The notes: generated by a model not told the origin, from the letters alone. A stretch of DNA of 64,000 nucleotides from Alphaproteobacteria bacterium (GCA_964291395.2 OZ219856.1:32001-96000), one strand, 5' to 3'; counted from the stretch's first letter, positions 4,491 through 64,000 are shown. Translations and numbers: made by a program.

Positions 4491-4544
4491 TGTGGCGGAG
4501 GGGCTACGGCGCTCCCGCCCGGGGCGTAAGCGCCGTCAGCAGGA

Positions 4545-6593: not shown

Positions 6594-6920
6594 TTAGTCG
6601 ACCTCAATCCGTTTGCTGAGGCTGTACACGGAGCCTTCATCGTCGATCCATTGGAAGTCCAGGTGGCCCGATTCCGGAACGGCCATCTGAAACTGTATGT
6701 AGGGATCGGCCGAGACCGCCGGCTCCAGATCGACGGAGACTGCCACCTCGCCGTTGAAGCTCACCACAAAGCGATTGATGATCTGGCGCGGCACGAGCAC
6801 GCCCTCGCTGTCATGGCGCTGCCCCGTATGCATCGGATGGGTGATCCGGGTCTTGACCGTGAAGGGGACGCCCGCCGCCACCGACTTCGGCAGCTTCACG
6901 CGCGGCCTGGGTTCCGCCAT
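6594..6920 (-). CDS. soxZ: Thiosulfate oxidation carrier complex protein SoxZ
   Basis: PRVKLP...ITHPMHTGQRHD...PRQIINRF...AVSADPYIQF...WIDDEG. Confidence 0.93.
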   Translation of the reverse strand: MAEPRPRVKLPKSVAAGVPFTVKTRITHPMHTGQRHDSEGVLVPRQIINRFVVSFNGEVAVSVDLEPAVSADPYIQFQMAVPESGHLDFQWIDDEGSVYSLSKRIEVD

Positions 6921-6930
6921 CGTCCGTTCC

Positions 6931-7350
6931 TCAACCGCAGCCGCCGACTGTCACCGCGATTGCCTGGGAGGTCTGGCGGAACGTGCCGTCCGCCATCTCC
7001 GCCACCGCATACACGGTCTGGCTCCCGGCCAGCCGGATGCGGATCGTGGCTTCCGGCGGCACCAGCCTTCCGAACGTGAAGACCGCGACGCCGGGATTCG
7101 GGTTTCCGTCGTTGAAGAGCGCAATGCGTCTGGCACCCTCGGCAACGACCCGGATCGGCACGGCGCCGCCGTTGTCGAAGATTTCCGGCGCATCGAGAAT
7201 CACGCCGCCTTCCAGGCGGAATGCGCCGCCTGTGAACGCGTCGATGGCCTGCCGGACCCCGTTCGAGGCCTCTACCGCGCCGACGGGGATCAGCGTGGCC
7301 GCGCTGGCAGACACGCCCATCAGCAACACATCCCTGCGCGTCGGAGCCAC
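6931..7350 (-). CDS. soxY: Thiosulfate oxidation carrier protein SoxY
   Basis: Tat signal TRRDVL, PEIFDNGGAVP, RIRLAGSQ, C-terminal swinging arm VTVGGCG. Confidence 0.93.
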   Translation of the reverse strand: MAPTRRDVLLMGVSASAATLIPVGAVEASNGVRQAIDAFTGGAFRLEGGVILDAPEIFDNGGAVPIRVVAEGARRIALFNDGNPNPGVAVFTFGRLVPPEATIRIRLAGSQTVYAVAEMADGTFRQTSQAIAVTVGGCG

Positions 7351-7641
7351 GATGAGGCCTCCTCCCGCTCGCCGGCCGATTAGTGATATGGCTCCCCGTT
7401 GCGGCGCACGTCAAGCCTCTGTCGCCCGATGCCGAGGGCGGCGGCTTGCGTGTCACGCTACGCTGCGACTTCGGCACGATCCTAGAACGGGCGGGAAATG
7501 GGGACAAGAGAGAGGCGACCGACACCCCCCGCTCGTGGGCATCGCGGTCGTGATAGAGTGGTGAACGTCGACGATGAGCCGCCGGGGAGCGAGACGGACG
7601 ACTGTCCGATGTCCTCCTCCCGACGATCAGGATGGGTAACG

Positions 7642-8574
7642 ATGGACGGAGACGGTTCGCTCCGACGAACGGTCGATCATCGAGATATCGTCGGGCGGCT
7701 CAGCCGTGTCGAGCGGCGCAGCCTGTTGCGGCGCTCCGATCTGAGAGGCTTGGTCCATCTTGCCGGCCATCTGGCGGCGCTGGGCGTTACCGGTTCGCTG
7801 ATCGCTCTCGAGGTGCCGGGCTGGCCGGTCCTGCTGCTGCCTCACGGCATTCTGCTCGTCTTCCTGTTTTGCCTGCAACATGAGGCGGTGCACGGAACGC
7901 CCTTCCGCAGCAACTGGCTGAGTACGGTGGCGGCCTGGGCAACGGGGCTGGTATCCGTCCTGCCCCCGGCCTGGTTTCACCATTTCCACATGGCGCATCA
8001 CCGCTACACTCACGATCCGGCGCGCGATCCGGAACTGGCAAGGCCCCCGCCGAGATCTAAGCCCGGTCTCGTCTGGACCGTCGCCGGCGGTCCCTACTGG
8101 GTGGGCCAGGTGAGGACTTTGCTGAGCAACGCTGCCGGGCGGAACCGCGACGCGTTCGTGCCGCCGCGGGCCCGATCGGCCGTCGTCCGGGAAGCGCGCC
8201 TGTTTCTCGCCGCCTACCTCGCCGCCGCCGGGTTGTCGGTGCTTTGGGGAGCGACCGCGCTGCTCTGGTGCTGGCTCGTTCCCGCGCTCCTCGGGCAGCC
8301 CTTCCTGCGCCTCTATCTGCTGGCCGAGCATACCGGATGCCCGCACGTGCCCGACATGCTCCGGAACACGCGCACGACCTTCACCAATGCGGCAGTGCGC
8401 TTCGTCGCCTGGAACATGCCCTATCATGTCGAGCACCATGTCTACCCTGCCGTGCCGTTCCACAAGCTGCCGATGCTCAACGCCATGATGCGGAGCGATT
8501 TGACCGTCACGGCAAACGGCTACCGGGCCGCGGCACGCGCCACTATTCCGGCCATCCTGCGCGGCCAGGCATAG
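7642..8574 (+). CDS. Membrane fatty acid desaturase / MocD-like di-iron oxygenase
   Basis: Histidine boxes HEAVH, HMAHH and HVEHH; LAEHTGC...NTRTT...WNMPYH. Start uncertain (7498-7642). Confidence 0.85.
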   Translation: MDGDGSLRRTVDHRDIVGRLSRVERRSLLRRSDLRGLVHLAGHLAALGVTGSLIALEVPGWPVLLLPHGILLVFLFCLQHEAVHGTPFRSNWLSTVAAWATGLVSVLPPAWFHHFHMAHHRYTHDPARDPELARPPPRSKPGLVWTVAGGPYWVGQVRTLLSNAAGRNRDAFVPPRARSAVVREARLFLAAYLAAAGLSVLWGATALLWCWLVPALLGQPFLRLYLLAEHTGCPHVPDMLRNTRTTFTNAAVRFVAWNMPYHVEHHVYPAVPFHKLPMLNAMMRSDLTVTANGYRAAARATIPAILRGQA

Positions 8575-8655: not shown

Positions 8656-10073
8656 TCATCGTGGCAGCGACGACTCACCCATCAGGAATTCGTCCACGGC
8701 GTAGGCGCATTGCCGGCCCTCGCGGATAGCCCAAACCACGAGCGACTGGCCACGGCGCATGTCGCCTGCAACGAACACGTTGGGCAGCGACGTGATGTAT
8801 CTCTCCGTATCGGCGAGGACGTTGCCGCGCGTGTCGAGTTCGACTCCCAATTTCTCGATCATGCCTTCATGGACCGGATGAACGAAACCCATCGCCAGCA
8901 GAACGAGCCCCGCCTGCAGGTCGAATTCAGTTCCGGGAATCTCCTGCATTCCTTCGTCTAGGCGGACCGCGTGAAGTTTCGAGACGGTCCCGTTGGCGCC
9001 TGAAAGGCACTTGGTCGCGACGCTCCAATCGCGCTCCGCCCCTTCCGCATGGGACGAGGACGTGCGGAGCCGGAGCGGCCACAGGGGCCATGTGGTGCCT
9101 TTGTCGGGTTTCTCCGGCGGCATCGGCAAAATCTCCAGCTGCGTGACCGAGACCGCGCCTTGGCGGAACGACGTGCCGATGCAATCGGAGCCCGTATCGC
9201 CGCCGCCAATCACGATGACATGCTTGCCTTGGGCATGAATCTCTTCCACTTCGCCGAGGGGCTCCCCGCTGATACGCCGGTTCTGCTGGGGCAGGAAATC
9301 CATGGCGAATTCGACACCGCGCAACCCCCTTCCTTCGACCGGCAGGTCGCGCGCCTTCTCCGACCCACCTGCCAGGACGACGGCGTCGTATTCCCGGACA
9401 AGGTCCTGGGCTTCCATATCGACCCCGACATGCACCCCGGTGCGGAAGATCACGCCTTCCGCCTCCATTTGGGTGACGCGCCGGTCGATGTAGTGCTTTC
9501 CATCTTGAAGTCGGGAATGCCGTATCGGAGCAACCCGCCCGGTTTGGCGTTCTTGTCGAACAGCGTGACGTCGTGCCCGGCGCGCGCCAGCTGTTGCGCG
9601 CAGGCCATGCCGGCGGGACCCGCTCCGACGACGGCGACGCGTTTGCCGGTCCGGCCTGCGGAGATGTCGGGAACCGCCCAGCCTTCCTGCCAAGCCCGAT
9701 CCGCGATGGCGCACTCGATCGTCTTGATTGTTATCGGGGCGTCATCGATGTTCAGCGTGCAGGCTTCCTCGCAAGGTGCCGGGCAGACGCGACCGGTGAA
9801 TTCGGGGAAGTTGTTGGTCGAGTGCAGCACTTCGATGGCTTCCCGCCACTGGTCGCGGTAAACGAGGTCGTTCCAGTCGGGGATGATGTTGTCGACGGGG
9901 CAGCCGGTGTGGCAGAACGGGATGCCGCAATCCATGCAACGCGCGCCCTGCTGCTTCAACGTATTCTCGTCCAGCGGCACCACGAACTCGTTGAAATTAC
10001 GGACGCGTTCGGCGACCGGCGCGTAGCGCTGCTCCTTCCTGTCGAATTCGAGAAAACCCGTGACTTTGCCCAT
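8656..10073 (-). CDS. gltD: Glutamate synthase small subunit, split by a 1-bp frameshift near 9498-9500
   Basis: The N-part ([10 protein letters not shown]...[10 protein letters not shown]...YGIPDFKME) and C-part (KHYIDRRV...GGGDTGSDC...[15 protein letters not shown]) are in different frames. GAAAG is one A short of GAA AAG. Confidence 0.93.
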
Positions 10074-51585: not shown

Positions 51586-53946
51586 GTGAAGACGCCGCTC
51601 CACGCCCTGGTTCTCTGCGTCCTCTTCGCGATGGCGGGCTGCGGCGGCGGGGGCGGAGATCTTCGATCCGAGCCGGCCCCGCAGGAGGAAGGGGAAGTGC
51701 CCTCCCTGCCGCCCGTGTCCTGCATCCGGACGGCGCTGGGCTGCATCTCCCCGGCGCAGTACCGGCAGGAGCGCCAGGCCATCGAGGACGGGCACGCCGG
51801 CGCGGACGGTTTCAGGAACCAGTGGGGGCTGGGCGCCATCCGGGCGGACCGCGCCTGGGCGCAGCTCGAGCTGGAGCACGGCGGCGGCACGGCGCCGGGC
51901 GCCGGCGTCACGGTCGGCGTCGTCGACACCGGCATCGACGCCGGGCACCCGGTGTTCGCGGGCAAGACGGTGAGCGAGGAGTTTCTCGGCGGGGCGCCGG
52001 ACGAGACCGGCGACAGGAGGTCCCACGGCACCGCCGTGGCGGGCGTGATCGCGGCGCGGCCGGACGCCTCGTTCACCGGCGCGGTGGATGCGGCGCCCGG
52101 CGTCGCCTGGGGCGCCGACCTCGCGGTGTTCGCGGTCCGCACCGGGGAGAGCGGCGGCGTCTACGTCCCGATATCGCTGTCGGGCCTCGGCGGCGGCGAC
52201 GATCGCTGGGCCTCCCGGGCCCGTCACGTCGTCGACTGGCGGCGCGGCGGCCGGACCCTCGACTTCGTGAACATGAGCGTCGGCTTCCACGGCATCATCG
52301 ACCAGTACGGCGAGCGGCAGCTCCGCGACGGTTTCGGCGGCGTGATCGCCGCCCTCGCCCAGCCGGGCGCGGCCGACAAGACCGTTTTCGTCTGGGCCGC
52401 CGGCAACGCCCATGGGGACCCCTGCGAGGCGGCCGACTTCGCGGCCGACCCGGACCTCTGCGTCGAGGCCGTCGAGGGCGGCCAGACCGTGCGCCGCGTC
52501 GACGCCAGGTCGGTCGAGGTCATGCCCGGCCTGCCGGCGCGCATCGCCGAGCTGCGCGGGCACCTGATCGCCGTCGTGGCCGTGGCTCCCGACGGCGACG
52601 GCGACGGGGACTACGAGATCGCCCCCTTCTCCAACCGCTGCGGCATCGCCAGGGAGTGGTGCCTGGCGGCCCCCGGGGCGGCGGTCCGGGTGGCCTATTT
52701 CGGCCCCGACCCCGACGACGGGAGTCCGGGCGCCCGGGGCGCCGCGACGTTTAGCGGCACGTCCTTCGCCGCGCCGATGGTGACCGGCGGGCTCGCCGTG
52801 ATGAAGCAGTTCTTCCGCGGCCAGCTCTCGAACGTGGACCTGGCCGCGCGCCTCCTGGAGACGGCCGACAGGCGGGGCGTCTACGCCGACGGCGACACCT
52901 ACGGCCGGGGCCTGATGGACCTCGCCGCGGCGACGGCGCCGGTGGGCGACGCCGTGATCGCCGGCGGCGGACGGGTGGACCGCTCCGGCGCCGCCGTGGC
53001 CGCGACCCGCCTCGTCGCGGGCCCGGCCCTCGGCGACGGGCCGGCGCGGGCCCTGGCCGGACGGGAGGTCGCCGCCTTCGACGCCCTGGGGGCGCCGTTC
53101 TGGTTCTCCCTCGGCGATCTCGCCGGCGCCGCGCTCGGCCCCTCCGTGGCCGCGCGGCTCCGAGCCTTCATGGCGCCTTCGCGGGAGGATCGGGAGTCGG
53201 GGCCGGACGGCCTGCGGATCGGGCTGCTGGAGGAGCCTTCCGCGGACGCCGGCGGCGGCCACCTCTCCCTCGCCGGACGGGCCCTCGCCGTGCGCGCGGC
53301 GGCGCCGGGCGGCCTCGGCCTCGCGGTGTTCTCGAACCGGGGCCTGCGCGGACGGTCCCCGGCGTCGGGCGCGCTGCTGTCGTGGGTGCCGTCCGGAGCG
53401 CCGGTCGGCGTGCGCGGCGGCCTGGTGGCGGAGCGCGAGACCCTTTTCGGCAGCAGGGCGGCCGGCGCCTTCGGCCGTCTGTCCGCCGGCTCCGCCTTCG
53501 CCGGCGTCGACGGCAGCGCCCGCGTCGGCGCCTGGCGGCTCGCCGCCGGCGCCGAGGTCGGCATGGCGGCCGCGGCCGCGGCCGACGGCATTCTCGCCGG
53601 CCTCTCGCCGCTCTTCAGCAGCGCCTTCGCGCTCCGGGCGGAGCGGCCGACGGCCGGCGCGGGCTCGCTGCTGCTCTCGGTGTCCCAGCCGCTGCGCGTC
53701 GAGGCCGGCCGCGCCCGGTTCTCGGTCCCGGTCGGCCGCACGACGGACGGCCGGGTGCTGCGCCGGTCGCTGGCGGCCGATCTCGCCCCCTCGGGCCGCC
53801 AGGTCGAGGTCGCGGCCCGGTGGCGCCGCCCCCTCGCGGCCGGCGGGGAGGTCCGCCTCGGCGCGAGCTGGACCCGGCAGCCGGGCCACGCGGCGTCGGC
53901 GGATGCCGACGTCTCCCTGTTCGCCGGCTGGCGCCGCGCCTTCTGA
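51586..53946 (+). CDS. Lipoprotein S8 subtilisin-like serine protease with probable C-terminal beta-barrel (autotransporter-like)
   Basis: Lipobox MAGC followed by GGGGG; catalytic triad VVDTG, HGTAVAG, GTSFAAP; AAGN oxyanion motif; YGRGLMDL; beta-strand-rich C-terminus ending in F. Confidence 0.85.
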   Translation: MKTPLHALVLCVLFAMAGCGGGGGDLRSEPAPQEEGEVPSLPPVSCIRTALGCISPAQYRQERQAIEDGHAGADGFRNQWGLGAIRADRAWAQLELEHGGGTAPGAGVTVGVVDTGIDAGHPVFAGKTVSEEFLGGAPDETGDRRSHGTAVAGVIAARPDASFTGAVDAAPGVAWGADLAVFAVRTGESGGVYVPISLSGLGGGDDRWASRARHVVDWRRGGRTLDFVNMSVGFHGIIDQYGERQLRDGFGGVIAALAQPGAADKTVFVWAAGNAHGDPCEAADFAADPDLCVEAVEGGQTVRRVDARSVEVMPGLPARIAELRGHLIAVVAVAPDGDGDGDYEIAPFSNRCGIAREWCLAAPGAAVRVAYFGPDPDDGSPGARGAATFSGTSFAAPMVTGGLAVMKQFFRGQLSNVDLAARLLETADRRGVYADGDTYGRGLMDLAAATAPVGDAVIAGGGRVDRSGAAVAATRLVAGPALGDGPARALAGREVAAFDALGAPFWFSLGDLAGAALGPSVAARLRAFMAPSREDRESGPDGLRIGLLEEPSADAGGGHLSLAGRALAVRAAAPGGLGLAVFSNRGLRGRSPASGALLSWVPSGAPVGVRGGLVAERETLFGSRAAGAFGRLSAGSAFAGVDGSARVGAWRLAAGAEVGMAAAAAADGILAGLSPLFSSAFALRAERPTAGAGSLLLSVSQPLRVEAGRARFSVPVGRTTDGRVLRRSLAADLAPSGRQVEVAARWRRPLAAGGEVRLGASWTRQPGHAASADADVSLFAGWRRAF

Positions 53947-53970
53947 GGCCTTGGTCGCCACTCCGCGAGG

Positions 53971-54085
53971 GCCGGCGCCCGGCGCCGAGCGCGCCGGCAT
54001 GGGCGCCGGTGTCGAAGGCGCCCCGTGTCCCGGCATGGCCGGGGCCTTTCCCTCTCCGTGCGGGCGGCGCGCCGGCTTCGACGTC
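53971..54085. repeat. REP-like GC-rich palindromic repeat (copy 1)
   Basis: Stem GCCGGCGCCC...GGGCGCCGG; shares CGCGCCGGCATGGGCGCCGG and GCGCCGGCTTCGACGTC with 61915-61958. Confidence 0.5.
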
Positions 54086-54473
54086 AGATCAGCTCCATTT
54101 CGGCATTCACGCCCGGCGTGCCGGCCAGCCTTCGATCGCCGGTGACGAGCACCGTGGACAACGCTTCCGCCAGCGCCACGTACACGGCGTCATATGCGCT
54201 GACGTTGGCGCGAAGCTGCCACACCCTGTCGAGGAAAGGCTCGTGGGGATAGCGCTCGACATCGAGGCCGCGCCACCGATGCAGGGCCGTCGCCGCGAGC
54301 CGTTCCTCCAGCGTTCCCTGCAGGACGTATCGGCGAAGCACCTGGGCGATCTCGATATCGATGAGATGCGGTGCGTGAACGGCGTCGGCATCGTCCGCAA
54401 GCCGCGCCGCCAGCCTCTTGCCCGATGCGGTGTTCAACAGGAATTCGACGGCCGCGGACGCGTCCACGACCAT
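54084..54473 (-). CDS. vapC: VapC PIN-domain toxin
   Basis: MVVDASA, APHLIDIE, NVSAYDAVYVALAE, LVTGDRRL. Confidence 0.92.
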   Translation of the reverse strand: MVVDASAAVEFLLNTASGKRLAARLADDADAVHAPHLIDIEIAQVLRRYVLQGTLEERLAATALHRWRGLDVERYPHEPFLDRVWQLRANVSAYDAVYVALAEALSTVLVTGDRRLAGTPGVNAEMELI

Positions 54474-54703
54474 CAGCGCGGCCCCCGTTCCTCGCGCAAG
54501 ACCTCGGCCGGCGACGGCTCCAGCGGGATTTCCGGCTGGGAGCGGATGGCTTCCAGCAGCTCCTGCCGGCTCGGGCGGTCGAGCGCCTTCTCGATCGTCC
54601 GCAGAACGTAGCTGGACATCGAGACCCCCTCGATGGCGGCCCGGGCCTTCAGCCGCCGATGCAGCGACGCCGGAACGTTTCGAACCTGGATCATCATGTT
54701 CAT
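54473..54703 (-). CDS. FitA/VapB-like ribbon-helix-helix antitoxin
   Basis: IQVRNVPASLHRRLKARAAIEGVSMSSY; stop overlaps the vapC start; upstream TTGACA-N17-CATGCT with CATGC repeats. Confidence 0.88.
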   Translation of the reverse strand: MNMMIQVRNVPASLHRRLKARAAIEGVSMSSYVLRTIEKALDRPSRQELLEAIRSQPEIPLEPSPAEVLREERGPR

Positions 54704-54848
54704 GCAAAAAGCATGAAAGCATGTGCACTGCATGTCAAGTCGGACGTCCCGCAACGATCGAACGACGTCATGATACTGAACCGGGTTCGCTCGAGCCGCT
54801 CAAAGGAAAAGAAAGGGGCTTGTCCCGAACGGTTGGCGGCTCACGCGT

Positions 54849-55136
54849 TCAGGCGGCGGCGAAGCGCCGCACCGGCACGTCCTCGCGGCCTTCGAGGGCG
54901 TGCCAGAGGTCGTACTGCATCTGCTGCTGCAGCCAGCTCTCGGGGCTGCCGCCGAACGCCTGGGAGAGCCGGATGGCCATCTCGGGAGAGATCCCGAGGC
55001 GGCCGTTGAGCAGCATCGAGAGCGTGTTGCGGGAGACCGAGAGGCCCCTGGCGGCCTCGGTCACCGTCAGCCCGAGGGGCTCGAGGCACTGACGGCGGAT
55101 GAATGCGCCGGGATGGGGAGGATCGTGCATGAGCAT
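54849..55136 (-). CDS. higA: HigA-family addiction module antidote
   Basis: PPHPGAFIR...LTVTEAA..L.VSR.TLS.LLNG...[24 protein letters not shown]. Confidence 0.92.
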
Positions 55137-55149
55137 GGCGCGCCCTTTC

Positions 55150-55261
55150 CTGGCCGGGCGAGGATGTCGCGCACCTTCTCGCGGTGCTCGGGGGACAGAC
55201 GCCGCGCGTCGCCGCGTTCCATGACCCGTCCGAGGACCCGGCTCTTGAAGCTGCGTATCAC
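55150..55261 (-). pseudogene. higB: Truncated HigB (plasmid maintenance killer) toxin
   Basis: [10 protein letters not shown]....[22 protein letters not shown], then homology stops; the catalytic C-terminal half (LH.LKG...NWR.TF) is absent. Confidence 0.75.
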
Positions 55262-55426
55262 GGTACCACCGTAACGTGCATCTTGTCGGTTGTCAGTGGT
55301 CGTGGAGCGAGGCTGAATACAAGGCGACCCGGACCGTGTGAAAAAGTCGGCGATGACGCTCGTGGCGGAGTCCCTCCGGCCGATGAGGTGGTAGAATGCG
55401 CCATGGCGCACTAGCCGGTGAAGGGA

Positions 55427-55497
55427 GTATGAACGGGCTGCGCCGCGTCCGGCGCGGAGGCCCAGGTACGAGAGAGGTTCGGAGGAAAGTCCATGCA
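55427..55497 (+). repeat. 71-bp leader repeat upstream of lipoprotein 1 (hairpin plus SD)
   Basis: Differs at 2 positions from 56508-56578; GC hairpin followed by GGAGG and ATG. Confidence 0.85.
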
Positions 55498-56470
55498 CGG
55501 AATGACGATGATCTCCCTCGCCGTCGTCGTGGCGCTGACGGCGGGCGCCTGCTCCCGCCGCGAGGACCCCCCGCCGCCCGACGACTCCATCACCTTCGAG
55601 AGGAACTCGGAGTTCTCGACGCTGCACCTGCGGGTGTTCCTGACGTTGGAAGACGGCACCGACGTCTCCGTCAACACGACCCACGACGCCGTCGCGACGG
55701 AACCCGGCGCCACCCCCATCCCCGGCCATCGGGCGCGGAACTGGACGTTCGTCAAGGACGCGGACATCGGCACGTCGGTGGCCTACGCCCTGCTGAGCTG
55801 GGATCCGGACGACCCGGCCGACTACCTGATGGCCGGCTGGTGGGCGCAGTTCCCCGGGCAGCATCTCCCCGACCTGTCGTTCAGGGACTCCATCCAGTAC
55901 TCCATCGTCGACGGGCCGGAGTTCGACCTGTCGGCCCCCCGCCGATTGCCGGTGGAGGGGCGGGCGACCTACGTCGGGCAGGCCGGCGGGCTCTATGCGT
56001 ATGAGGCCGGGAGCGACTGGGGAGAGGACGAGGGCGCCTACGTGCTCGACGAGTATGAGGGAGTCGTCACGATCGCGGCGGACTTCGCCGACGGCACCGT
56101 GAGCGGCTGCATCGGCTGCGCGGGCGATCTCGTCACCCGGCGCGCGCATTTCGGCATCTTCCTGGGAGACGAGGTGCGCGACGCCCGGGCCATTGCCGCC
56201 GACTACGAGCTGCACTTCGGCGTCACGCCCATCGACCCGGACGGCACCTTCGAGCGTGACGGCGTGGAGGTCAGGCACCCCGATCGCGCGGTCACGCATT
56301 CGGAGGGGGGCTGGGGCGGCACGCTTTCCAACATCCCCGACGGCGACGGCAACCCCCGTCTGGTGGGCGGTTTCAGCAGTGCCGACTTCGAGGAGAGCGA
56401 CGGCAGCGCCGGCCAGTTCGTCGGAACCTTCGTCGCCCTGAGCGAGCCCTTCCGGGCGACCGGCAGGTGA
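55493..56470 (+). CDS. Putative surface lipoprotein 1 with TbpB-like C-terminal beta-barrel
   Basis: Lipobox TAGAC; LPVEGRATYVGQAGG, ADFADGTVSG, CIGC, GWGG, GNPRLVGGF. Confidence 0.65.
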   Translation: MHGMTMISLAVVVALTAGACSRREDPPPPDDSITFERNSEFSTLHLRVFLTLEDGTDVSVNTTHDAVATEPGATPIPGHRARNWTFVKDADIGTSVAYALLSWDPDDPADYLMAGWWAQFPGQHLPDLSFRDSIQYSIVDGPEFDLSAPRRLPVEGRATYVGQAGGLYAYEAGSDWGEDEGAYVLDEYEGVVTIAADFADGTVSGCIGCAGDLVTRRAHFGIFLGDEVRDARAIAADYELHFGVTPIDPDGTFERDGVEVRHPDRAVTHSEGGWGGTLSNIPDGDGNPRLVGGFSSADFEESDGSAGQFVGTFVALSEPFRATGR

Positions 56471-56507
56471 GACCGCTCCTTCCCCGTCGCGGGCGGCGGG
56501 GGAGGGG

Positions 56508-56578
56508 GTATGAACGGGCTGCGCCGCGTCCGGCGCGGCGGCCCAGGCACGAGAGAGGTTCGGAGGAAAGTCCATGCA
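56508..56578 (+). repeat. 71-bp leader repeat upstream of lipoprotein 2
   Basis: Near-identical to 55427-55497; repeat period 1081 bp. Confidence 0.85.
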
Positions 56579-57548
56579 AAGAATGACGACGATCTCACTC
56601 GCCGTCGTCCTGGTCCTGACGGCGGGCGCCTGCGTGCGCCGCGACGAGGCGCCGTCCGGACACATCATCGAGCTCGAGAGGAACACGGAGTTCGACGGCG
56701 CGAGCCTGCGGCTGTTCGTGTCGCTGGACGACGGAACCGAGGCCTCCGTCAACACGGCCGACGACGTCATCGAGGTGCTGCCCGCGGCTACGCCCATGCC
56801 CGGCCACCGGGCGCTGGCCTTGACGTTCCTGAAGGTCGAGAAGGACGACACGTCGGTCGCCCACGCCCTGTTGAGCTGGGACCCCGACGATCCGGGGGAC
56901 TACCTCGTGTTCGGCTGGTGGGCGCTGTTCCCCGACCAGCACCCGCCGGAGCTATCGTTCAGGGACTCGGTACGGTACGCGCTCGTCGACGGCCCGGAGC
57001 TCGACCATGGCGTGGTGCCGCGGCTGCCGGTCGACGGGACGGCCACCTACGCCGGCCAGGCCGGGGGGCTCTACTCATACGTGTTCGGGAGCGACTGGGG
57101 GGAGGACGAGGGCGGCTTCGTGATCGACGAGTACCAGGGGACGGTCACCCTCACCGCGGACTTCGCGGACGGCACCCTGAGAGGCTGCATCGGCTGCGTG
57201 GGCGACCTCGTCACGCAGCGCGCGCATTTCGGCGTGTTCCTCGGCCGGGAGCTGATCGACGTGCAGGGGTTGGCCAGGGACTACGAGCTCCACCTCCCCA
57301 CCGCGATCTTCCGGGAGGACGGCCAGTTCCACCGCGACAAGGTGGTGTTGCGGCATCCGGAACGGACCGTCACGCTGTCGGAGGGGTACTGGGGCGGCGC
57401 CCTGTCCAGCCGCCGGGACGAGGACGGGAACCCCCGGCTGGTGGCGGGCTTCAACGGCGTCTCCTTCGAGGAGAGCGACGGCAGCGAGGGTGAGTTCTTC
57501 GGGTCGTTCCTGGGCCTGAGCGGGCCCTTCAGGGCGTCCGGCAGGTGA
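56574..57548 (+). CDS. Putative surface lipoprotein 2, paralog of lipoprotein 1
   Basis: Lipobox TAGAC; same motifs (LSWDPDDP, FPDQHPP.LSF, ATYAGQAGGLY, CIGC). Confidence 0.65.
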   Translation: MQRMTTISLAVVLVLTAGACVRRDEAPSGHIIELERNTEFDGASLRLFVSLDDGTEASVNTADDVIEVLPAATPMPGHRALALTFLKVEKDDTSVAHALLSWDPDDPGDYLVFGWWALFPDQHPPELSFRDSVRYALVDGPELDHGVVPRLPVDGTATYAGQAGGLYSYVFGSDWGEDEGGFVIDEYQGTVTLTADFADGTLRGCIGCVGDLVTQRAHFGVFLGRELIDVQGLARDYELHLPTAIFREDGQFHRDKVVLRHPERTVTLSEGYWGGALSSRRDEDGNPRLVAGFNGVSFEESDGSEGEFFGSFLGLSGPFRASGR

Positions 57549-57590
57549 GGCCGCTCCTTCCCCGCCGCGCGCGACGGGAGAGGGCGCTAT
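57210..57590 (+). repeat. Left copy of ~380-bp direct repeat (3' third of lipoprotein 2 plus downstream spacer)
   Basis: Aligns with 59804-60183 from GTCACGCAGCGCGCGCATTTC to AGAGGGCGCTAT. Confidence 0.9.
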
Positions 57591-57714
57591 CGAGACCCTC
57601 TTCATCGGTCTCTTCCTCGGCGCCCGTACGCGGGCGTCCGAACCGTTCTGCGGTCGGCGGTGGCGCTGGTCGTCTTGGTCGAGCCTTGAGGCTGCGCCTG
57701 GTGACCGGCATCAT

Positions 57715-57772
57715 ATCCTCACAAAAATATATACCTCATTCAGAATGTGAGGTATCTTTTTTCACTGAGGAT
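57715..57772. promoter_or_regulatory. Nested inverted repeat, putative AbiEi autoregulatory operator
   Basis: ATCCTCA...ATACCTCA-N9-TGAGGTAT...TGAGGAT in the AT-rich segment before the module. Confidence 0.65.
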
Positions 57773-57791
57773 TATCCTTTCGGTGATTGAC

Positions 57792-58799
57792 GTGACAAGC
57801 AGCAACGCAGCCCGCCGTTCCGAGGCGGCAGTCGCGGCCGTGCTCCCTCCTTCGGTCCGGATTCGGCGGTGCCGCGAGGACGGTCATGTGATCGGCCTCG
57901 AACTCAACGGACAGCCTATCACGGTCGAATGGCTGGGCGAGGGCGGATTGCGCCAGGCGCGCGAGTTGCTCGCCGGCCGCAAGGAGCGCCCGGACGTCGC
58001 GGCGGCTCGCCATATGTCGCCCGGCGCACGCAAGGCGCTGTCGGCTGCCGGGATGGGCTGGGTGGACGAGACCGGCGCGGCAGAGATCACGCTGGAGGCA
58101 CTGATCGTTTCCAGGAGCGGGCACCCCATCAAGGTGCCGCAGAAACCGCCTCGCTGGTCGCCCTCCGTCCTCGCCGTCGCCGAGGCATTGCTCTGCGGCG
58201 GGCGCGCCACCGTCGGCGCCATGCAGGAAACCACGGGGCTTTCCGCCGGAAGCGCCACGAACGCCCTGCGAGCTCTCACGGATCTCGGGCTCATAAGCGC
58301 CGCAACGCGTCGTGGGCGCAACTCCGCGCGCCGAATTCCCGATCACGACCGGTTGCTCGACGCATACGCGGCTGCGGCCGCCTCGATGATGCCGGAGACC
58401 GCTCTCGCGGTCGGTGTGACGTGGCGCGACCCGGCGACGGCCCTGGCTGAAACCGGCCGGCGATGGAACGACACAGGTATCTCGTGGGCGGCCACGAGCA
58501 CGGTGGCAGCATCGGTGTTCGCTCCCTATCTCACCACGGTCACGACCGGCGAGGTCTATGTCGACAGGAAGACGATTGCCGGGCTTGAGGAAGTGGCCGC
58601 AAAGGCGGACCTGCGACCGATCGAAGGCGGGCGTCTCACCCTTCGACCATTCCCCACGGTTACGGCCAGACTGCTTGCCGTGGTGAAGAACGGACTGAGC
58701 CTCGCTCCATGGCCCCGAGTGTACGCCGACCTGCGCGTCGTCGGCGTGCGAGGCGAGGAAGCCGCCGAGCATCTCCGGGACGTGATCCGTGGCCGATGA
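57792..58799 (+). CDS. AbiEi-like type IV TA antitoxin (winged HTH)
   Basis: GMGWVDETGAAEI, HTH TGLSAGSATNALRAL, LLDAYA, RVYADL...GVRGEEAAEHLR. Start uncertain (57747-57792). Confidence 0.75.
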   Translation: MTSSNAARRSEAAVAAVLPPSVRIRRCREDGHVIGLELNGQPITVEWLGEGGLRQARELLAGRKERPDVAAARHMSPGARKALSAAGMGWVDETGAAEITLEALIVSRSGHPIKVPQKPPRWSPSVLAVAEALLCGGRATVGAMQETTGLSAGSATNALRALTDLGLISAATRRGRNSARRIPDHDRLLDAYAAAAASMMPETALAVGVTWRDPATALAETGRRWNDTGISWAATSTVAASVFAPYLTTVTTGEVYVDRKTIAGLEEVAAKADLRPIEGGRLTLRPFPTVTARLLAVVKNGLSLAPWPRVYADLRVVGVRGEEAAEHLRDVIRGR

Positions 58800-59631
58800 T
58801 CCGCCTCCCCGCTCCCGGGCCGCGCGTGAAGCGGCCGAGAGGGCGCTCGTGCGCATCGTCCACCACTACGGGGCGCGACCGGAGTTCGTCCTGCTCGGGG
58901 GGCTGGTTCCGGAATTGCTCTGCGCCGGCAGCAGATTCCAGCACGCCGGGACCACCGACGTGGACGTGCAGGTCGATCTTGAAATCGCCTATGGCGCCGC
59001 GAATGCCGCACGACTGGAGCAAGCCCTTCACAATGCGGAGTTCGAGCCCGAGGACGACCGAATTTGGCGTTGGGTGGCGGACGGAGCTGTTGCCGGGACG
59101 GTTGTGAAGTTCGAGCTTCTGGCCGATCTCCACGATCAACAGACGGGCGCGAGGATCTCGTTCGACGCGTGCGAGAACCTCGGCGCGGTGAACCTCCATG
59201 GTACGGGCTTTGCGTCCCGCGACATCCAAGTGCGCGATCTCAGCGCCCGGATCGGCGGTGTCGCCTACAATGCCCAAGTGAACGTTGCGGGACTGGCCGG
59301 CTTCTTGCTGGCCAAGGCAGCGGCCGCATACTCAAGGCGGGCACCCAAGGATTGGTATGACATCGCCTTCGTACTCTTACATAACGACGCCGGCGGGCCG
59401 GCAGCCGCAGCCACGCTTGTGCGGGAACGATTCGTTGACGACCTCCGCTCGGTGCACACGGCTCTCGACGATCTGGAAGCCAATTTCGAGACCCCGGCGG
59501 CCCAGGGAGCCCAGGCCTATGTCCGTCAGATGCTGATCGATCACCCCGAGCTCGATCCACCAAGCCTTGCCGCCGACGCTTCGCTCGCCGTTCGGGAATT
59601 CCACAGGAGCCTGCGCGCCCATTCCGATTGA
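58789..59631 (+). CDS. AbiEii/MenT-like nucleotidyltransferase toxin
   Basis: VLLGGLVP, GTTDVD, K..A...R..PKDWYDI motifs; overlaps the antitoxin stop. Confidence 0.78.
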   Translation: MADDPPPRSRAAREAAERALVRIVHHYGARPEFVLLGGLVPELLCAGSRFQHAGTTDVDVQVDLEIAYGAANAARLEQALHNAEFEPEDDRIWRWVADGAVAGTVVKFELLADLHDQQTGARISFDACENLGAVNLHGTGFASRDIQVRDLSARIGGVAYNAQVNVAGLAGFLLAKAAAAYSRRAPKDWYDIAFVLLHNDAGGPAAAATLVRERFVDDLRSVHTALDDLEANFETPAAQGAQAYVRQMLIDHPELDPPSLAADASLAVREFHRSLRAHSD

Positions 59632-59803
59632 GTCAGACGCTTGCTGCCCGGTGTCACCGAGTGCTTCCGTTCGGTCTTCCCTACTCGCGAGAAATGCGGG
59701 CCAGACACTCCGGGAACGGGATTTTTCGTTCGAGGCGGTACGTCGGGCGACGGGACGTCAACACCACCTGAGGTCGGGAAGCCCCGATCCGGGAGGTGCC
59801 TTG

Positions 59804-60141
59804 GTCACGCAGCGCGCGCATTTCGGCGTGTTCCTCGGCCAGGAGCTGATCGACGTGCAGGGGTTGGCCAGGGACTACGAGCTCCACCTCGCCACCGCGA
59901 TCTTCCGGGAGGACGGCCAATTCGACCGCGAGAGGGTGACGGTGAGGCATCCGGATCGCACCGTCACGCAATCGGAGGGTTCTGGGGCGGCGCCCTGTCC
60001 AGCCGCCGGGACGAGGACGGGAACCCCCGGCTGGTGGCGGGTTTCAACGGCATCTCCTTCGAGGAGAGCGACGGCAGCGCCGGTGAGTTCGTCGGGTCGT
60101 TCCTGGGCCTGAGCGGGCCCTTCCGGGCGTCCGGCAGGTGA
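59804..60141 (+). pseudogene. Start-less 3' fragment of a lipoprotein-2 paralog (within the right copy of the direct repeat, which extends to 60183)
   Basis: VTQRAHFGVFLG...SGPFRASGR*; about 21 substitutions and one G deletion versus lipoprotein 2 by manual alignment. Confidence 0.88.
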
Positions 60142-60208
60142 GGCCGCCCCTTCCCCGTCGCGCGCGGCGGCAGAGGGCGCTATAGTGGAGAGGAGGAGGT
60201 GCCCGACC

Positions 60209-61140
60209 ATGACGAACGGAACGATCATGCGCCTCGCCGCGCTCGCCGGCGCCATGCTCCTCGCCGGCTGCCTTCACGGCGGGGGCGGCGGGGGCACGCT
60301 CAGCCCGGAGGACATCGACGAGGTCCGGTCCGATCCCAGGATCGTTCGGGCAAAGGGAATCTTCGAGCGGGCCGACACCCTGCTGATCCCCTCCCTCTAT
60401 CTCGAGGCCACGTCCAGCATCCGGGGAAGAAGCAGGAGCGAGGAGTGGGCTCTCCGCGGGCAATGCTCGGGTACGAACTGCGACCTGAGAGACGACAACG
60501 CGCGGTTCACCTTCACCTTCGATGATCTGATGATCAAGGAGCTGATAACCCCCACCGATGTGGATTTGGACAAGGCCGAGATCGGGAAACGCGACGGTTT
60601 CGACACCCTGGTCCTCGAAGGCAGGTCTCAGGTCGCGGAGGAGATCAGCGATAACGAAATTGCCACCGCCGCTGGTTCCGCGACGAGCTGGGGCCTCTGG
60701 GGCCAGCACGGCTACGCGGCGGTGGAACTCGTCACGGGATCGGTGCAGGAAGCCTTGATCAGTGGGCGCATAAGCGGCGCCCTCGGATACGCCTTCGGCC
60801 AGCGCAACCCCACCAACCCCGGGGGCACCGGGAGCGCGACCTGGGAAGGTCCGGCCGAAGTGATCTCCACCCGGACGTTCACGCGCTCCCAAGGCAAGGC
60901 GATCCTCACCATTCCGGACCTGGCCCGGTCCAGGATCGGCGCCGAGATCGAGGTGGCCGGCAACGATATCAGCAAGCCCTCCTGGAAGGACATGGCCCTC
61001 TCGCAGGGCCGCTTCACGGGGGGACGGTGGCGGGGGAAGACTACATGGCGGGCAACTTCCACGGCCCGAAACACGAGGAGGCCTACGGCGTCTTCGATAC
61101 CGGGGCCTACGTCGGCGCCTTCGGGGCGATGCAAAAGTAG
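60209..61140 (+). CDS. Surface lipoprotein with TbpB-like beta-barrel, frameshifted in a G6 tract (61018-61023)
   Basis: Lipobox LAGC plus poly-Gly; GSATWEG. Adding one G restores the C-terminus GNFHGPKHEEAYGVFDTGAYVGAFGAMQK*, the TbpB-barrel-type ending. Confidence 0.75.
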
Positions 61141-61243
61141 CGGATCCTCGTCGTCGGCTCGGTGTCCGCGCGGCCATGACGCCGCCGGGGGCGCGGACGG
61201 TGCCCGGTTCGCCCGACGCGGCGGGCGCGGGGCCTGCCGGCCT

Positions 61244-61597
61244 TCAGTCCGTCGGCGGCTGCCCGCTCAGGGCGTCGAACGCCCGCTCGCGGGATTTCGC
61301 GATGTGAATGACCTTGTCGAAGCCGCTGACGGTGAACATCTGGTGCAGGGGCGTGGACAGGCCGCACACCAGCCCCCTCCCGCCCTGCGCCTTGAGCCGT
61401 TTCGCCATCGCCAGGATCACCCTGAGGCCGGAGCTGTTCATGTAGGTGACCCCGGCGAGGTCGACGATGAGATAGCGGTCCGTTTCCCGGACCGCTTCCC
61501 GGAGGTCGGCGTCGAACCGGGGCGTCGTCTCTCCGTCGAGCCGGCCCGTGACGGTTGCGCACAGGACGTGCTCCCGGCGGTCGAAAGTCATCTCCAT
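61244..61597 (-). CDS. STAS-domain anti-sigma factor antagonist
   Basis: VTGRLD, IVDLAGVTYMNSSGLRVIL, MFTVSGFDK. Confidence 0.9.
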   Translation of the reverse strand: MEMTFDRREHVLCATVTGRLDGETTPRFDADLREAVRETDRYLIVDLAGVTYMNSSGLRVILAMAKRLKAQGGRGLVCGLSTPLHQMFTVSGFDKVIHIAKSRERAFDALSGQPPTD

Positions 61598-61654
61598 CTG
61601 GAATTCCCCCTTCGCCGCGGGGCGCGGCGCCCGTTCCGCCATGCGGCGCTCATT

Positions 61655-62206
61655 CTACACCGCCGTCTCCGCGGCCGGGAGGGAGAAGCCGCCCTCACGA
61701 CGCCGTGACGAGGATCGCGGCCACGCCGATGCCGGCGCCGGCGATCGCGGCCAACAGGTACCAGGACCACTTCCGCTCCCTGCCGAAGGGTGGAGAGGCG
61801 GGGGCGAAGCTGGAATCGGGCCTGGACCGGCGCCAGCGTGGAGGACGGAAGAGGCGGAGCACCGGCCTCCTGCCGCCCGCCCGCGGGTGTCCGCGGCGGA
61901 GTCTCCCGCCGGCCGCCCGGCGCCGTGTCGCGCCGGCATGGGCGCCGGCTTCGACGTCGGAACAACCTCGCGAACCTGCATTCGCCTTTGACCGTAAGCC
62001 CGCCGGGTCACCTGCCGCAATTCCCCGCACCTGTCGCAGAAGCCCTTCTCCCGGGTGAACTCTCCGGTGGTGGTGAGGGACACGGACACGCCGTTGACCT
62101 GGGTGCGGTTCACTCCGAGGGTCTCCACGGTGCAGGGGTCGCAGACGCCGGAGTGCAGCCCCGACGCTATGCAGCCGTGCACGCGCTCCGCGACCGTCGA
62201 AGCCAT
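61655..62206 (-). CDS. Hypothetical protein with two CxxC motifs; C-terminal part doubtful
   Basis: CDPC...TTTGEFTREKGFCDRCG in the first ~70 aa; the remainder is low-complexity and runs through a REP-like repeat. Confidence 0.4.
   Translation of the reverse strand: MASTVAERVHGCIASGLHSGVCDPCTVETLGVNRTQVNGVSVSLTTTGEFTREKGFCDRCGELRQVTRRAYGQRRMQVREVVPTSKPAPMPARHGAGRPAGDSAADTRGRAAGGRCSASSVLHAGAGPGPIPASPPPLHPSAGSGSGPGTCWPRSPAPASAWPRSSSRRREGGFSLPAAETAV
61915..61958. repeat. REP-like repeat (copy 2)
   Basis: GCCCGGCGCCGTGTCGCGCCGGCATGGGCGCCGGCTTCGACGTC matches both ends of 53977-54085. Confidence 0.5.
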
Positions 62207-62216
62207 TTCCTTCCCC

Positions 62217-62248
62217 AAAGAAAAGGGCGGCTCCCGAAGGAGCCGTCC
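62217..62248 (-). terminator. Rho-independent terminator of the porin gene
   Basis: Minus strand GGACGGCTCC-TTCG-GGAGCCGCCC-TTTTCTTT (cUUCGg tetraloop plus U-tract). Confidence 0.88.
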
Positions 62249-62328
62249 TCCAAACCGAGCGGACGGGGTGTCATGACAACCCGTTCAGGAGGTACCTGAG
62301 AGGTTATGCGCCCGTCCGAGCAGACTGA

Positions 62329-63456
62329 TCAGAAGCCTACGTTGATACCGACCATGAGCGCCTGGCCGGAGTTGTCGGCATCCCCTTCGCCGTCCATCTC
62401 GGCATCCTGGTAAGACGCCAGGAACCTCAAGCCCGGACCGATCGTGTAGCCGAAGCCCAGGGACCACGCGGTGTACGTGGCATCTCCAGGCGCATTGGTG
62501 TGCTGGTTCTCGCCGTCGAATCCCGTGATGCTGATCGCCCAAGGGCCTTGGCCGTACATGGCCCCGGCCTGCACGGCGGTGCCGCCGCCGCATCTCATGT
62601 CATCGTCCACGTCGGCAACCTGGGCGCCGACGGTGAAGCCCTGGGCGCTGAGCTGCATGCCTGCGTTCAGGGTCTGGTAGTCGTCGCTGCCGCAAGCGGC
62701 CGCGTCCGTGATGTTCGGCGCCGCTGCAACGCCCGCGCCGGCCATCATGGCCACGCCCACGCCGCCGACCTCTCCTTGGTAATGGACCGAGCCGTCGAAG
62801 GCATTGTGGTACTGCGTGTCCTCGTCGGCCACGCGGCCGTAGCCGGTCGTCGCCGAGTTGTCGATACGGTAGCGGTAGGAGCCGGTGAGACGGAAGCCGT
62901 TGAAGCGCGGCGAGTAGTATGTGAGGGTTGGCTGGTCATCCCCGACGTCCGTGTAAACCGAACCGAGGGGACCTTCGAACCTGCCGCCGACCGTGTCGTC
63001 GAACCAGAAGTGCGTGTGGCCCGAGCTGACGCCGTAGGCCGCGCTCGGTGGTGCCACCGCGGAGGTGTCTCCGTAGCGCCCGGACTGCATGTAACCGGCC
63101 CGGACCAAGCCCCAGCCGCTCGAAAGATCGATCCAGGTATGATCGATGCGGGTGCCGCCGGTGGAAGCACCTTCGAACTCGACCCGACCGCCGACCTTGA
63201 TGCCGTTTTCCATCTCGCCGGCGATGTTGACGAACACCTCGATGTTGTTCCGGGACGAGATGTTGCCCCGGTTCTCGCCGTCGTGGGCGTCCTGATTGGC
63301 GAAGTGGGTGGTGTGGTTGAAGAACCCGCCGAGCGACGCGCTCGGCGGCGTTGGCTCCATCATTTCCTTCTCTTCGGCAAGCGCACTGCCTGCCGCCAAG
63401 CTGACGGCGGCGGCAAGGGCCGTGGTGCCGAGAAGTCGTGATTTGGAAATCTTCAT
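62329..63456 (-). CDS. Outer membrane porin (alphaproteobacterial type)
   Basis: Signal LLGTTALAAA, ENGIKVGGRVEFEG, TYYSPRFNGF, YTIGPGL, C-terminal F. Confidence 0.9.
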   Translation of the reverse strand: MKISKSRLLGTTALAAAVSLAAGSALAEEKEMMEPTPPSASLGGFFNHTTHFANQDAHDGENRGNISSRNNIEVFVNIAGEMENGIKVGGRVEFEGASTGGTRIDHTWIDLSSGWGLVRAGYMQSGRYGDTSAVAPPSAAYGVSSGHTHFWFDDTVGGRFEGPLGSVYTDVGDDQPTLTYYSPRFNGFRLTGSYRYRIDNSATTGYGRVADEDTQYHNAFDGSVHYQGEVGGVGVAMMAGAGVAAAPNITDAAACGSDDYQTLNAGMQLSAQGFTVGAQVADVDDDMRCGGGTAVQAGAMYGQGPWAISITGFDGENQHTNAPGDATYTAWSLGFGYTIGPGLRFLASYQDAEMDGEGDADNSGQALMVGINVGF

Positions 63457-63585
63457 TACGCTGTTCCCTCCTTTAAGGGCCTTAGTTGTCTAGACGCCCG
63501 CAGTCTAAGGGACGGGGTGCGTGAAGGCACTAGGGCGCACCGTTTCGGTGGCGGGTTTCCCCGTTGTGTGACATTTCCGCTACGG

Positions 63586-63999
63586 TCAGGGCGTGATCGC
63601 GGCACAGTCGAAATATTCCGCGACCTCCCCGCACGTCCGGCCCTTGCGCACGTCGTCGAAGTACACGACTCGCGTGGGAACCTCTCCTCCGTATATCTGA
63701 CTGGTGTAGATGCCGAACTTGAAGAACACGGCGTTGTGCGTCCTGCGGTTCGTCGGCCCGAGCCATTCGTAGGAGGGCTCGGGCCGGCCGTTGACGTAGA
63801 CCCGGAGGAAGCCCTCGTCCCCCGCGCTCCATCTGACGTGGACGAGGAAGTCCGACCACCTGCCCCGCATGTCGTCGACCTTCAGAAGCTCGTTGCTCAC
63901 ATGAACATATCTGTAGCCGGGGTCCATCTTGTTCCTGACCAGGTAAAACTGGGTGAACTCGTACTCCCCGTCGATGACCCTCGCCTCCCCCCTGATTTG
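63586..63999 (-). CDS. Polysaccharide lyase / heparin lyase I-like beta-jelly-roll protein (5' truncated by window edge)
   Basis: GRWSDFLVHVRWS..DEGFLRVYVNG, FFKFGIY, VVYFDDVR; frame is open to the window end. Confidence 0.7.
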   Translation of the reverse strand, partial: QIRGEARVIDGEYEFTQFYLVRNKMDPGYRYVHVSNELLKVDDMRGRWSDFLVHVRWSAGDEGFLRVYVNGRPEPSYEWLGPTNRRTHNAVFFKFGIYTSQIYGGEVPTRVVYFDDVRKGRTCGEVAEYFDCAAITP

Positions 64000-64000
64000 A

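Follow-up and report, generated by a model that had tools for sequence, protein, structure and literature searches.

Lipoprotein genes and the repeated gene tail

The window analysed in this work is a stretch of 64,000 nucleotides (nt) from contig C1 of the genome G000 (C1:32001-96000), belonging to an uncultured host recorded as Alphaproteobacteria bacterium, and unless another contig or locus is named, all coordinates are counted from the first letter of this window. The subject of the work is a cluster of genes for predicted surface lipoproteins, in which the 3' end of one gene (lipoprotein 2) is found again, as a truncated orphan, on the far side of a two-gene toxin-antitoxin module of the AbiE type. 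The features making up this arrangement are as follows.

55493..56470, plus strand: lipoprotein 1, 325 amino acids (aa), a paralog of lipoprotein 2 (62% aa identity)
56574..57548, plus strand: lipoprotein 2, 324 aa, intact, with a predicted fHbp/TbpB-like surface-lipoprotein fold
57210..57590, plus strand: left direct repeat, consisting of the last 113 codons of lipoprotein 2 and the 42-nt hairpin spacer (57549-57590)
57591..57680, no strand: DNA left of the module, orphan DNA of 90 nt
57681..57791, plus strand: AbiE promoter/operator, whose palindrome is conserved with the module; homology to locus L027 begins at 57681
57792..58799, plus strand: AbiEi-like antitoxin/regulator, 335 aa, GTG start, central winged-helix signal
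58789..59631, plus strand: AbiEii (DUF1814 nucleotidyltransferase) toxin, 280 aa, PF08843 E 8.5e-7
59632..59803, no strand: DNA right of the module, orphan DNA of 172 nt, up to the junction with the lipoprotein fragment
59804..60183, plus strand: right direct repeat, an orphan that lacks its 5' part and consists of the 3' end of a lipoprotein-2-type gene and the hairpin; one nt is missing at ~59976
60209..61140, plus strand: lipoprotein 4 (the next lipoprotein), whose frame shifts at a G-run at ~61016-61023

Lipoproteins 1 and 2 are encoded in tandem, and each gene is followed by a 42-nt GC-rich hairpin spacer. By blastn, 381 nt at 57210-57590 match 380 nt at 59804-60183 (93.2% identity, E 7e-161) at an offset of 2593-2594 nt, and a second repeat search draws the slightly wider bounds 57201-57590 and 59795-60183. 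The repetition of the 3' third of lipoprotein 2 and its 42-bp spacer some 2.6 kb downstream, which the original prediction had described, is thus real, and the second copy does run into the Shine-Dalgarno sequence and ATG (60209) of the next lipoprotein, as had also been stated. Scans of open reading frames (ORFs) and against Pfam likewise bear out that nothing lies between the copies except the AbiEi-like/AbiEii pair and its palindromic operator. No integrase or other recombinase was found among the ORFs scanned at 54-63.5 kb, with only two genes between the repeats, and the neighbours scanned were the lipoproteins and genes of the helix-turn-helix (HTH), VapBC, STAS and porin types. An Rfam scan of 53500-64000 gave no RNA, and no tRNA-like element is present at the locus. 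The hairpin (-19 kcal/mol) was considered as a genome-wide repeat or a recombination site and ruled out as such, since it has only three copies in the genome, all of them behind these lipoprotein genes, lipoprotein 1 included.

When the two repeat copies are compared base by base, they differ by 25 substitutions, of which 21 are coding and 4 lie in the spacer, and by one deleted G, which sits in a G-run of the downstream copy (57383 versus 59976). If the frame is read through this deletion, 13 residues differ between the orphan and lipoprotein 2, in agreement with the earlier estimate of about 21 substitutions and about 13 amino-acid changes. However, that estimate overlooked the deletion itself. 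The downstream copy begins inside the gene (codon ~213), has no upstream region, and is read in two frames (ORFs 59567-60112 and 59641-60141); it is truncated and frameshifted, and due to the frameshift it is not an open alternative C-terminus of the lipoprotein, as had been proposed for it. The blocks that are identical in both copies measure 60, 49 and 37 nt, and the 60-nt block lies just downstream of the frameshift. The lipoprotein family gives six matches in this genome, viz. four full genes, arranged as two pairs, and the two frames of the orphan fragment.

No Pfam family was reached by the sequences of the lipoproteins. For lipoprotein 2 an AlphaFold2 model built from 71 sequences (predicted local distance difference test 86, predicted template modelling score 0.82) gave Foldseek matches to fHbp (E 6e-7), the TbpB C-lobe (9e-6), hemophilin (1e-5) and HpuA (2e-5), with HphA also among the best PDB matches; 65 matches have E <= 0.001, and their global template modelling scores are modest (0.34-0.48). 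The signal peptide ends in ...LTAGAC, and the lipobox Cys20 is invariant in the 71 aligned sequences. A Slam gene (PF04575, E 1.4e-25) is present at C2:1805-2707, in the sister cluster on contig C2, and a stretch 77% identical to it is located at C1:97971-99082, ~2 kb past the end of the window. These proteins are predicted Slam-type surface lipoproteins. In the AlphaFold2 model the repeat spans the second half of the C-terminal barrel, and its variable block (residues ~241-271) is placed on short strands and turns. In lipoprotein 4, the C-terminal motif continues in another frame to a TAG at 61138, and the change of frame may reflect a pseudogene, a phase-variable tract or an assembly error.

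The AbiE-type module and its relatives

The palindrome ATACCTCA-N9-TGAGGTAT at 57731-57755, which is nested in an outer ATCCTCA...TGAGGAT pair, aligns with palindromes upstream of the module in nine relatives and is a putative operator, and in the alignment with nine relatives the GTG at 57792 matches their ATG start. The first protein gave only a weak match to MarR_2 (E 0.004, residues 136-169) and none to the Pfam AbiEi or PADLOC models, and two of the five subfamily relatives that were scanned give sub-threshold matches to AbiEi_2 (17.6 and 19.1 bits versus 21). Due to these weak winged-helix signals, and as no Pfam or PADLOC AbiEi model was reached, it is referred to here as AbiEi-like. 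The assignment of AbiEii is firmer, as its match to PF08843 (29.6 bits, residues 20-258) exceeds the gathering score of 22.5, and it also matches the PADLOC AbiEii model (E 2e-4). It keeps 77 of the 78 columns that are at least 95% conserved among 78 subfamily members, including G37-G38 and D57/D59, which we take to be the nucleotidyltransferase motif. The order is bicistronic with the antitoxin first, the two genes overlap by 11 nt (58789-58799), and the module is single-copy in G000. The pair probably acts as an ordinary addiction or abortive-infection module, which as a side effect would disfavour the loss, through RecA, of the segment that the repeats enclose.

A search of species-representative genomes gave 155 stretches with relatives of AbiEii (57-77% aa identity), and the best 80 of these (L027-L106) were used for comparing the loci; they belong to Alphaproteobacteria, Actinomycetota, Spirochaetia, Bryobacterales, Gammaproteobacteria and others. 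The partner gene lies directly upstream of AbiEii in 76 of these 80 loci and the wider contexts are always unrelated. The search of other genomes for the module flanked by lipoprotein 3' ends, which the original prediction had suggested, found the lipoprotein of the window in 0/80 loci. The closest relative, L027 (87.5% nt identity), shares only 57681-59613 with the window, and the same-genus genome G004 shares 57721-59602 at another chromosomal place, where no lipoprotein is present. These sequence comparisons indicate a module that is promiscuous, or mobile by itself. Searches of 72,556 plasmid and 50,697 phage records gave no match to its subfamily. For the module's flanks (90 nt on the left, 172 nt on the right), no relative was found in the own genome and only two short matches were found among the 80 AbiE loci, a 40-nt stretch that matches L027 (E 4e-5) and a 25-nt stretch in the right flank (E 0.008).

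Direct repeats are also present around other members of this subfamily. When flanks of 3.5 kb were compared, 18 loci showed direct and 4 inverted matches, loci with <200 nt on a side having been left out of this census. With flanks of 1.2 kb, direct repeats were seen in 12 of 55 testable loci and inverted repeats in 3, as against 5 direct and 2 inverted at 101 pseudo-sites in the same loci; the loci with flanking repeats are not independent, as they include the sets L060/L067/L096, L091/L100 and L078/L089. The repeats themselves are locus-specific. An att-like core common to them was rejected, as sharing is limited to the close relatives L078/L089, L091/L100 and L060/L067. They are of various kinds: in L100 the repeat overlaps the 3' part of a tRNA-Arg gene, with a homologous copy in L091; in L060, L067 and L096 it adjoins tRNA-Met; in L036 it lies beside an integrase; in L085 the repeats are copies of an insertion sequence (IS) of the IS6 family; and in L032 the repeat is a gene 5' end. 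The case of L037, from a metagenome-assembled genome of a sponge symbiont, is the closest analogue of the window and has the same architecture, as the last 527 nt of a TraG/VirD4-like coupling-protein gene are repeated behind AbiE at 95% identity (3757-4283 and 7546-8069).

Two further observations concern the surroundings of these modules. Genes for tmRNA or tRNA directly adjoin the module in L045, L066, L057, L060, L067, L096, L091 and L100, which come from several phyla, and such an adjacency is typical of decayed integrative islands. In L033 (the locus of G004), an intergenic repeat of 130-340 nt is present in three copies (4448-4787, 6879-7347 and 8220-8544). The AbiE pair and a toxin-antitoxin pair of the Gp49/HTH type are set apart by these copies, in a layout that resembles a small array of cassettes.

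Origin of the orphan tail

The relationships of the orphan were examined in a codon alignment that comprised lipoproteins 1, 1' and 2, the counterpart of lipoprotein 2 on contig C2, the orphan and four homologues from metagenomes. Between the orphan and lipoprotein 2 there are 6.5 synonymous and 14.5 non-synonymous differences, and the synonymous divergence (dS) is 0.083; in the same region dS between lipoprotein 2 and its C2 counterpart is 0.087, and between the paralogs 1 and 2 it is 0.44-0.49. On this scale of sequence divergence, the orphan and lipoprotein 2 differ at the level of alleles and not of paralogs, and repeat copies made by a recent duplication of the target would not be expected to diverge in this way. 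When six outgroups are used for polarisation, 7 changes are the orphan's own (1/1/5 by codon position), and the stem common to lipoprotein 2 and the C2 counterpart carries 8 (3/4/1 by codon position). At the 13 diagnostic residues, the wider family mostly has the orphan's states in the variable block, and the P..H/D.DKVL..E block is derived in the lipoprotein-2 lineage. By these measures, the orphan is an ancestral-type, allele-level relative of lipoprotein 2, which would have behaved as a coding sequence until recently. The matches of some of its variants to lipoprotein 1, to which the original prediction had drawn attention, do exist; however, the states in question are ancestral and are also present in outgroup homologues. 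The resemblance of the orphan to lipoprotein 1 is due to this shared ancestry, and gene conversion from lipoprotein 1 into the orphan was rejected on the same ground. As a separate observation, 7 of the 8 changes in the lipoprotein-2 lineage fall at first or second codon positions. This burst is located near residues 241-263 and is a hint that these turns of the barrel may be under diversifying selection.

Contig C2 provides a second view of the cluster. Its part C2:7261-92809, some 85-90 kb, is collinear, in inverted orientation, with C1:1-89567 (window 1-57567) at 96-98% identity, the homology ending inside the hairpin behind lipoprotein 2. This segment may have been duplicated on a large scale, or it may come from another strain that was assembled together with the first (the contamination is 9%). 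On C2 the lipoprotein-2 cassette is located at a non-syntenic position between VapB and the HTH gene, and direct repeats of 149 nt flank it (94.6% identity; 9502-9650 and 11161-11309 of L020, which is C2:1-16000); one of them is left over from the 3' part of the HTH gene. These repeats are a second partial-duplication scar in the same cluster, again with allele-level divergence and in this case without a toxin-antitoxin pair. Unlike its copy on C1, the S8 protease/autotransporter-like gene of C2 (C2:12185-14786) has a TAG within it and extends over two frames. In the window, the VapB and HTH neighbours lie to the left of the lipoprotein genes.

54084..54754, minus strand: VapC (PIN) and VapB-like (RHH) toxin-antitoxin pair, PF01850 E 5e-10 and PF22513 E 6e-9, left of the lipoprotein cluster
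54849..55136, minus strand: HTH_3 (HigA-like) regulator, PF01381 E 3e-11, whose 3' end is the 149-nt repeat of contig C2

Counting VapBC and the HTH_3 (HigA-like) gene at 54084-55136, three modules of toxin-antitoxin type lie within 6 kb of the lipoprotein cluster.

Among 432 relatives of lipoprotein 2 in public protein sets, one (P0002) is of particular relevance. This 324-aa protein has the signal peptide of lipoprotein 2, and in a protein-level comparison its last 52 residues are identical to those of the orphan (52/52), including an Ile that is unseen in the others of the 10 closest proteins tabulated; its variable block is unlike that of both lipoprotein 2 and the orphan. The lipoprotein alleles thus look mosaic, as is usual for such antigens, and given P0002 exchange among alleles is possible. 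The host sequence recurs in sponge metagenome runs, and Logan contigs of 4 runs (three sponge metagenomes) were aligned to 55300-61300. Many variant lipoprotein tails were seen in these contigs as loose ends, together with joints such as 57267>59879 (17 letters between), 59917>57349, 57206>60022 and 56251>59947, all of them short-sided (24-43 nt). These joints were rejected as evidence of excision, since each of them either does not keep the register or can be accounted for by variant alleles with a match to either copy. The check for excision and mosaic alleles thus gave a mosaic-looking natural allele, and no in-register skip of 2593/2594 nt or circle was seen in the contigs of the 4 runs, which cannot show rare forms.

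Based on these results, we favour, with moderate confidence, the interpretation of the downstream copy as a static orphan, which would have remained when DNA with the AbiEi-like/AbiEii islet recombined into the lipoprotein cluster. This is indicated by the 5' truncation, the 1-nt deletion, the allele-level dS, the third-position changes of the orphan and the mobility of the module, and also by the second partial duplication on C2, the analogous arrangement in L037 and the published precedent for such events. The event would have been of the type known as homology-facilitated illegitimate recombination (HFIR) or C-terminal displacement. The donor DNA, from a related strain, would have contained a complete lipoprotein-2 allele, its terminator hairpin, a spacer of ~90 nt, the AbiE module and ~170 nt more. 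If its left side paired by homology in or upstream of the lipoprotein gene, and its right side was joined illegitimately inside the resident gene at ~59800, then the intact gene seen now would be the imported or derived allele, and the resident tail (an allele or a very recent tandem paralog) would have lost its promoter and the 5' two-thirds of the gene, and would later have become frameshifted. The entry by recombination at lipoprotein homology and without an integrase, as originally proposed, is retained in this interpretation, but the single-crossover circle of 2.6 kb is one of several routes and is not singled out.

Several points weigh against this interpretation. The polarised counts are small (7 and 8 sites). 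The frameshift of the orphan lies in a G4 run and is possibly an assembly error, in which case a 113-codon tail would be open. A comparison of C1 with C2 over 31.5 kb shows 19 gaps of one base, of which only 3 fall in homopolymers of at least 3, and gives no sign of rampant homopolymer error, although the deletion in the orphan may nevertheless be such an error. Further, lipoprotein 2 is 95.3% identical to the C2 copy at the nt level, near the 96-98% of the flanks, and the corresponding figure for the orphan is 91.9%. Taken alone, these identities would make the orphan the foreign piece and not the resident one, an argument that is weakened because the C2 copy is itself non-syntenic and flanked by repeats. 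Lastly, the one-sided route is read back from the end product alone, and which of the copies was the resident one is likewise inferred.

The alternative that survives best, which we regard as rather unlikely, is that the orphan derives from a third tandem paralog. If the cluster once had the order lipoprotein 1-2-3-4, and the insertion of AbiE deleted the upstream region and the first two-thirds of gene 3, then the predicted end product would be identical to that observed. Tandem paralogs with a common hairpin are already present here, and the orphan has evolved as a coding sequence for most of its history, as this explanation would expect. However, its dS to lipoprotein 2 (0.083) is not at the paralog level, and P0002 joins the signal peptide of lipoprotein 2 to the terminal residues of the orphan. 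Moreover, three such genes in a row were seen in no genome or contig searched (G000, 5 metagenome loci and the genus relatives). A complete third paralog in relatives, which the original prediction had named as the finding that would count against it, was likewise absent from 40 relatives and 5 metagenome loci. A lipoprotein 2 homologue was found in 6 metagenome loci, and each of the 5 longer ones has one copy. These homologues (L021-L025, 69-73% aa identity) are single-copy, and in their flanks no match was found to lipoprotein 4, AbiEi, AbiEii, HTH, STAS, porin, VapB, VapC or the S8 protease. Genus relatives have lipoprotein homologues at only 32-37% identity, and genus synteny was rejected as a guide to the ancestral locus, since the homologues of the S8 protease and of the porin lie at a great distance from each other in G001, G002 and G004.

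Inserts between repeats are as a rule removed by RecA. A different role for the module is envisaged if AbiE, in the window and around this subfamily generally, makes the RecA-mediated deletion between the repeats costly, so that the orphan is kept as a donor of barrel strands and alleles are shuffled in the symbiont population. Such a stabilised cassette is improbable in our view, and the terminus that P0002 shares with the orphan and the excess of flanking repeats at AbiE loci (12/55 versus 5/101) are compatible with it. That the pair would, as a side effect, disfavour this deletion is by analogy reasonable, because AbiE modules stabilise plasmids and an integrative and conjugative element (ICE) elsewhere, as reported in PMC3985639 and PMC11062541.

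The stronger proposal of a working variation device, in which the orphan is a silent donor locked by AbiE, and conversion or deletion swaps the C-terminal barrel strands, appears quite improbable. The orphan's end, with its otherwise unseen Ile, does occur in a natural full-length protein, variant tails are numerous in the contigs, the stabilising effect of AbiE on plasmids and an ICE speaks for it as well, and recombination of an orphan back into the main gene is known at rhs, according to work cited in PMC5361080. However, there is a single, frameshifted orphan, its variable block is the common state of the family, the variable block of P0002 comes from neither copy, so that P0002 is no direct product of this pair, and the contigs of the 4 runs, which cannot show rare forms, contain no in-register joint. 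The switching of alleles suggested originally is undermined by the frameshift, as a crossover upstream of 59976 would break the gene. The likeliest crossover, in the longest identical block just after the frameshift, would change only three residues (V/I, E/A and F/V), leaving the QFHRDKVVL block unswapped. In view of the single frameshifted orphan, the position of the 60-nt block and the lack of an in-register joint in the contigs, a programmed switch is unlikely.

The Campbell-type integration of a non-replicating circle of ~2.6 kb, bearing AbiE and a lipoprotein 3' fragment, by one crossover with the chromosomal gene tail, is very improbable: its geometry is exact (an intact gene upstream, and co-oriented repeats that enclose the toxin-antitoxin pair alone), the identical blocks would permit a RecA crossover, and direct repeats flank this AbiE subfamily more often than pseudo-sites, but the circle would need a prior illegitimate joining of AbiE to the fragment and accounts for nothing beyond what a linear one-sided event does, the searches gave no element of this kind (AbiEii being unmatched in the plasmid and phage records), and the repeats at other loci are heterogeneous (tRNA ends, IS, intergenic regions and gene 5' ends) and common to close relatives only.

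Significance and comparison with known systems

If the interpretation of a static recombination scar is correct, then integrase-less defence or addiction islets enter the chromosomes of uncultured bacteria by way of homology in polymorphic surface-protein genes, with an orphan tail of the gene as the trace of their entry, and C-terminal displacement would extend from toxin loci to Slam-type lipoproteins. For annotation, it follows that gene tails of this kind should be treated with caution, as remnants and not as alternative exons. If, on the other hand, the bolder reading of a stabilised donor were true, addiction modules would be tied to the upkeep of antigen-variation material, with the toxin-antitoxin pair guarding a tail-exchange donor from deletion.

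The arrangement shares features with several known systems, and it differs from each of them. The prophage e14 and phage 21, which insert into icd of E. coli, carry a substitute gene end. As in these cases, a protein gene in the window has the insert at its 3' end and is itself intact, and a slightly different copy of its tail is present at the other end of the insert; however, those elements use an integrase and a short core site, whereas here there is no integrase and the repeat is 381 nt long. Silent partial cassettes serve antigenic variation in systems of the pilE/pilS type, with which the locus shares a promoterless partial surface-protein gene beside expressed copies, and alleles that look mosaic in the population. 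Unlike in these systems, there is one cassette only, it is frameshifted, and its variable block is common rather than novel. With the Slam-dependent proteins TbpB, fHbp, HpuA and hemophilin, the lipoproteins share the fold, the invariant lipobox Cys, a PF04575 gene in the cluster and a high diversity of alleles, but they reach no Pfam family by sequence and their host is an uncultured alphaproteobacterium.

The module resembles the AbiE type IV systems, as described in PMC3985639 and PMC11062541, in the overlapping bicistronic pair, the DUF1814 toxin, the upstream palindromic operator and its association with mobile DNA. It differs from them in that its upstream protein lacks an AbiEi match in Pfam or PADLOC and has its helix-turn-helix signal in a central and not an N-terminal position, and in that no member of this subfamily was found in the searches of plasmid and phage records.

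The displacement by HFIR that leaves orphaned 3' regions at type VI secretion system (T6SS), rhs and cdi loci has been proposed in PMC5361080, which cites Jackson 2009 (for rhs) and Koskiniemi 2014. As in the C-terminal displacement of rhs, cdiA and T6SS genes, a full gene is followed in the window by foreign DNA and then by a co-oriented, promoterless copy of the gene's 3' part, which is truncated on its 5' side and has diverged. The proposed arrival by one-sided homology, the lack of an integrase and the possibility in principle of the orphan recombining back are also common to both. However, the gene in the window encodes a surface lipoprotein and not a toxin, and a single orphan is present. 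As cargo, an AbiE pair takes the place of a new toxic tip with its immunity gene, and the orphan has nearly the same sequence as the intact gene (93%) and is not a different domain.

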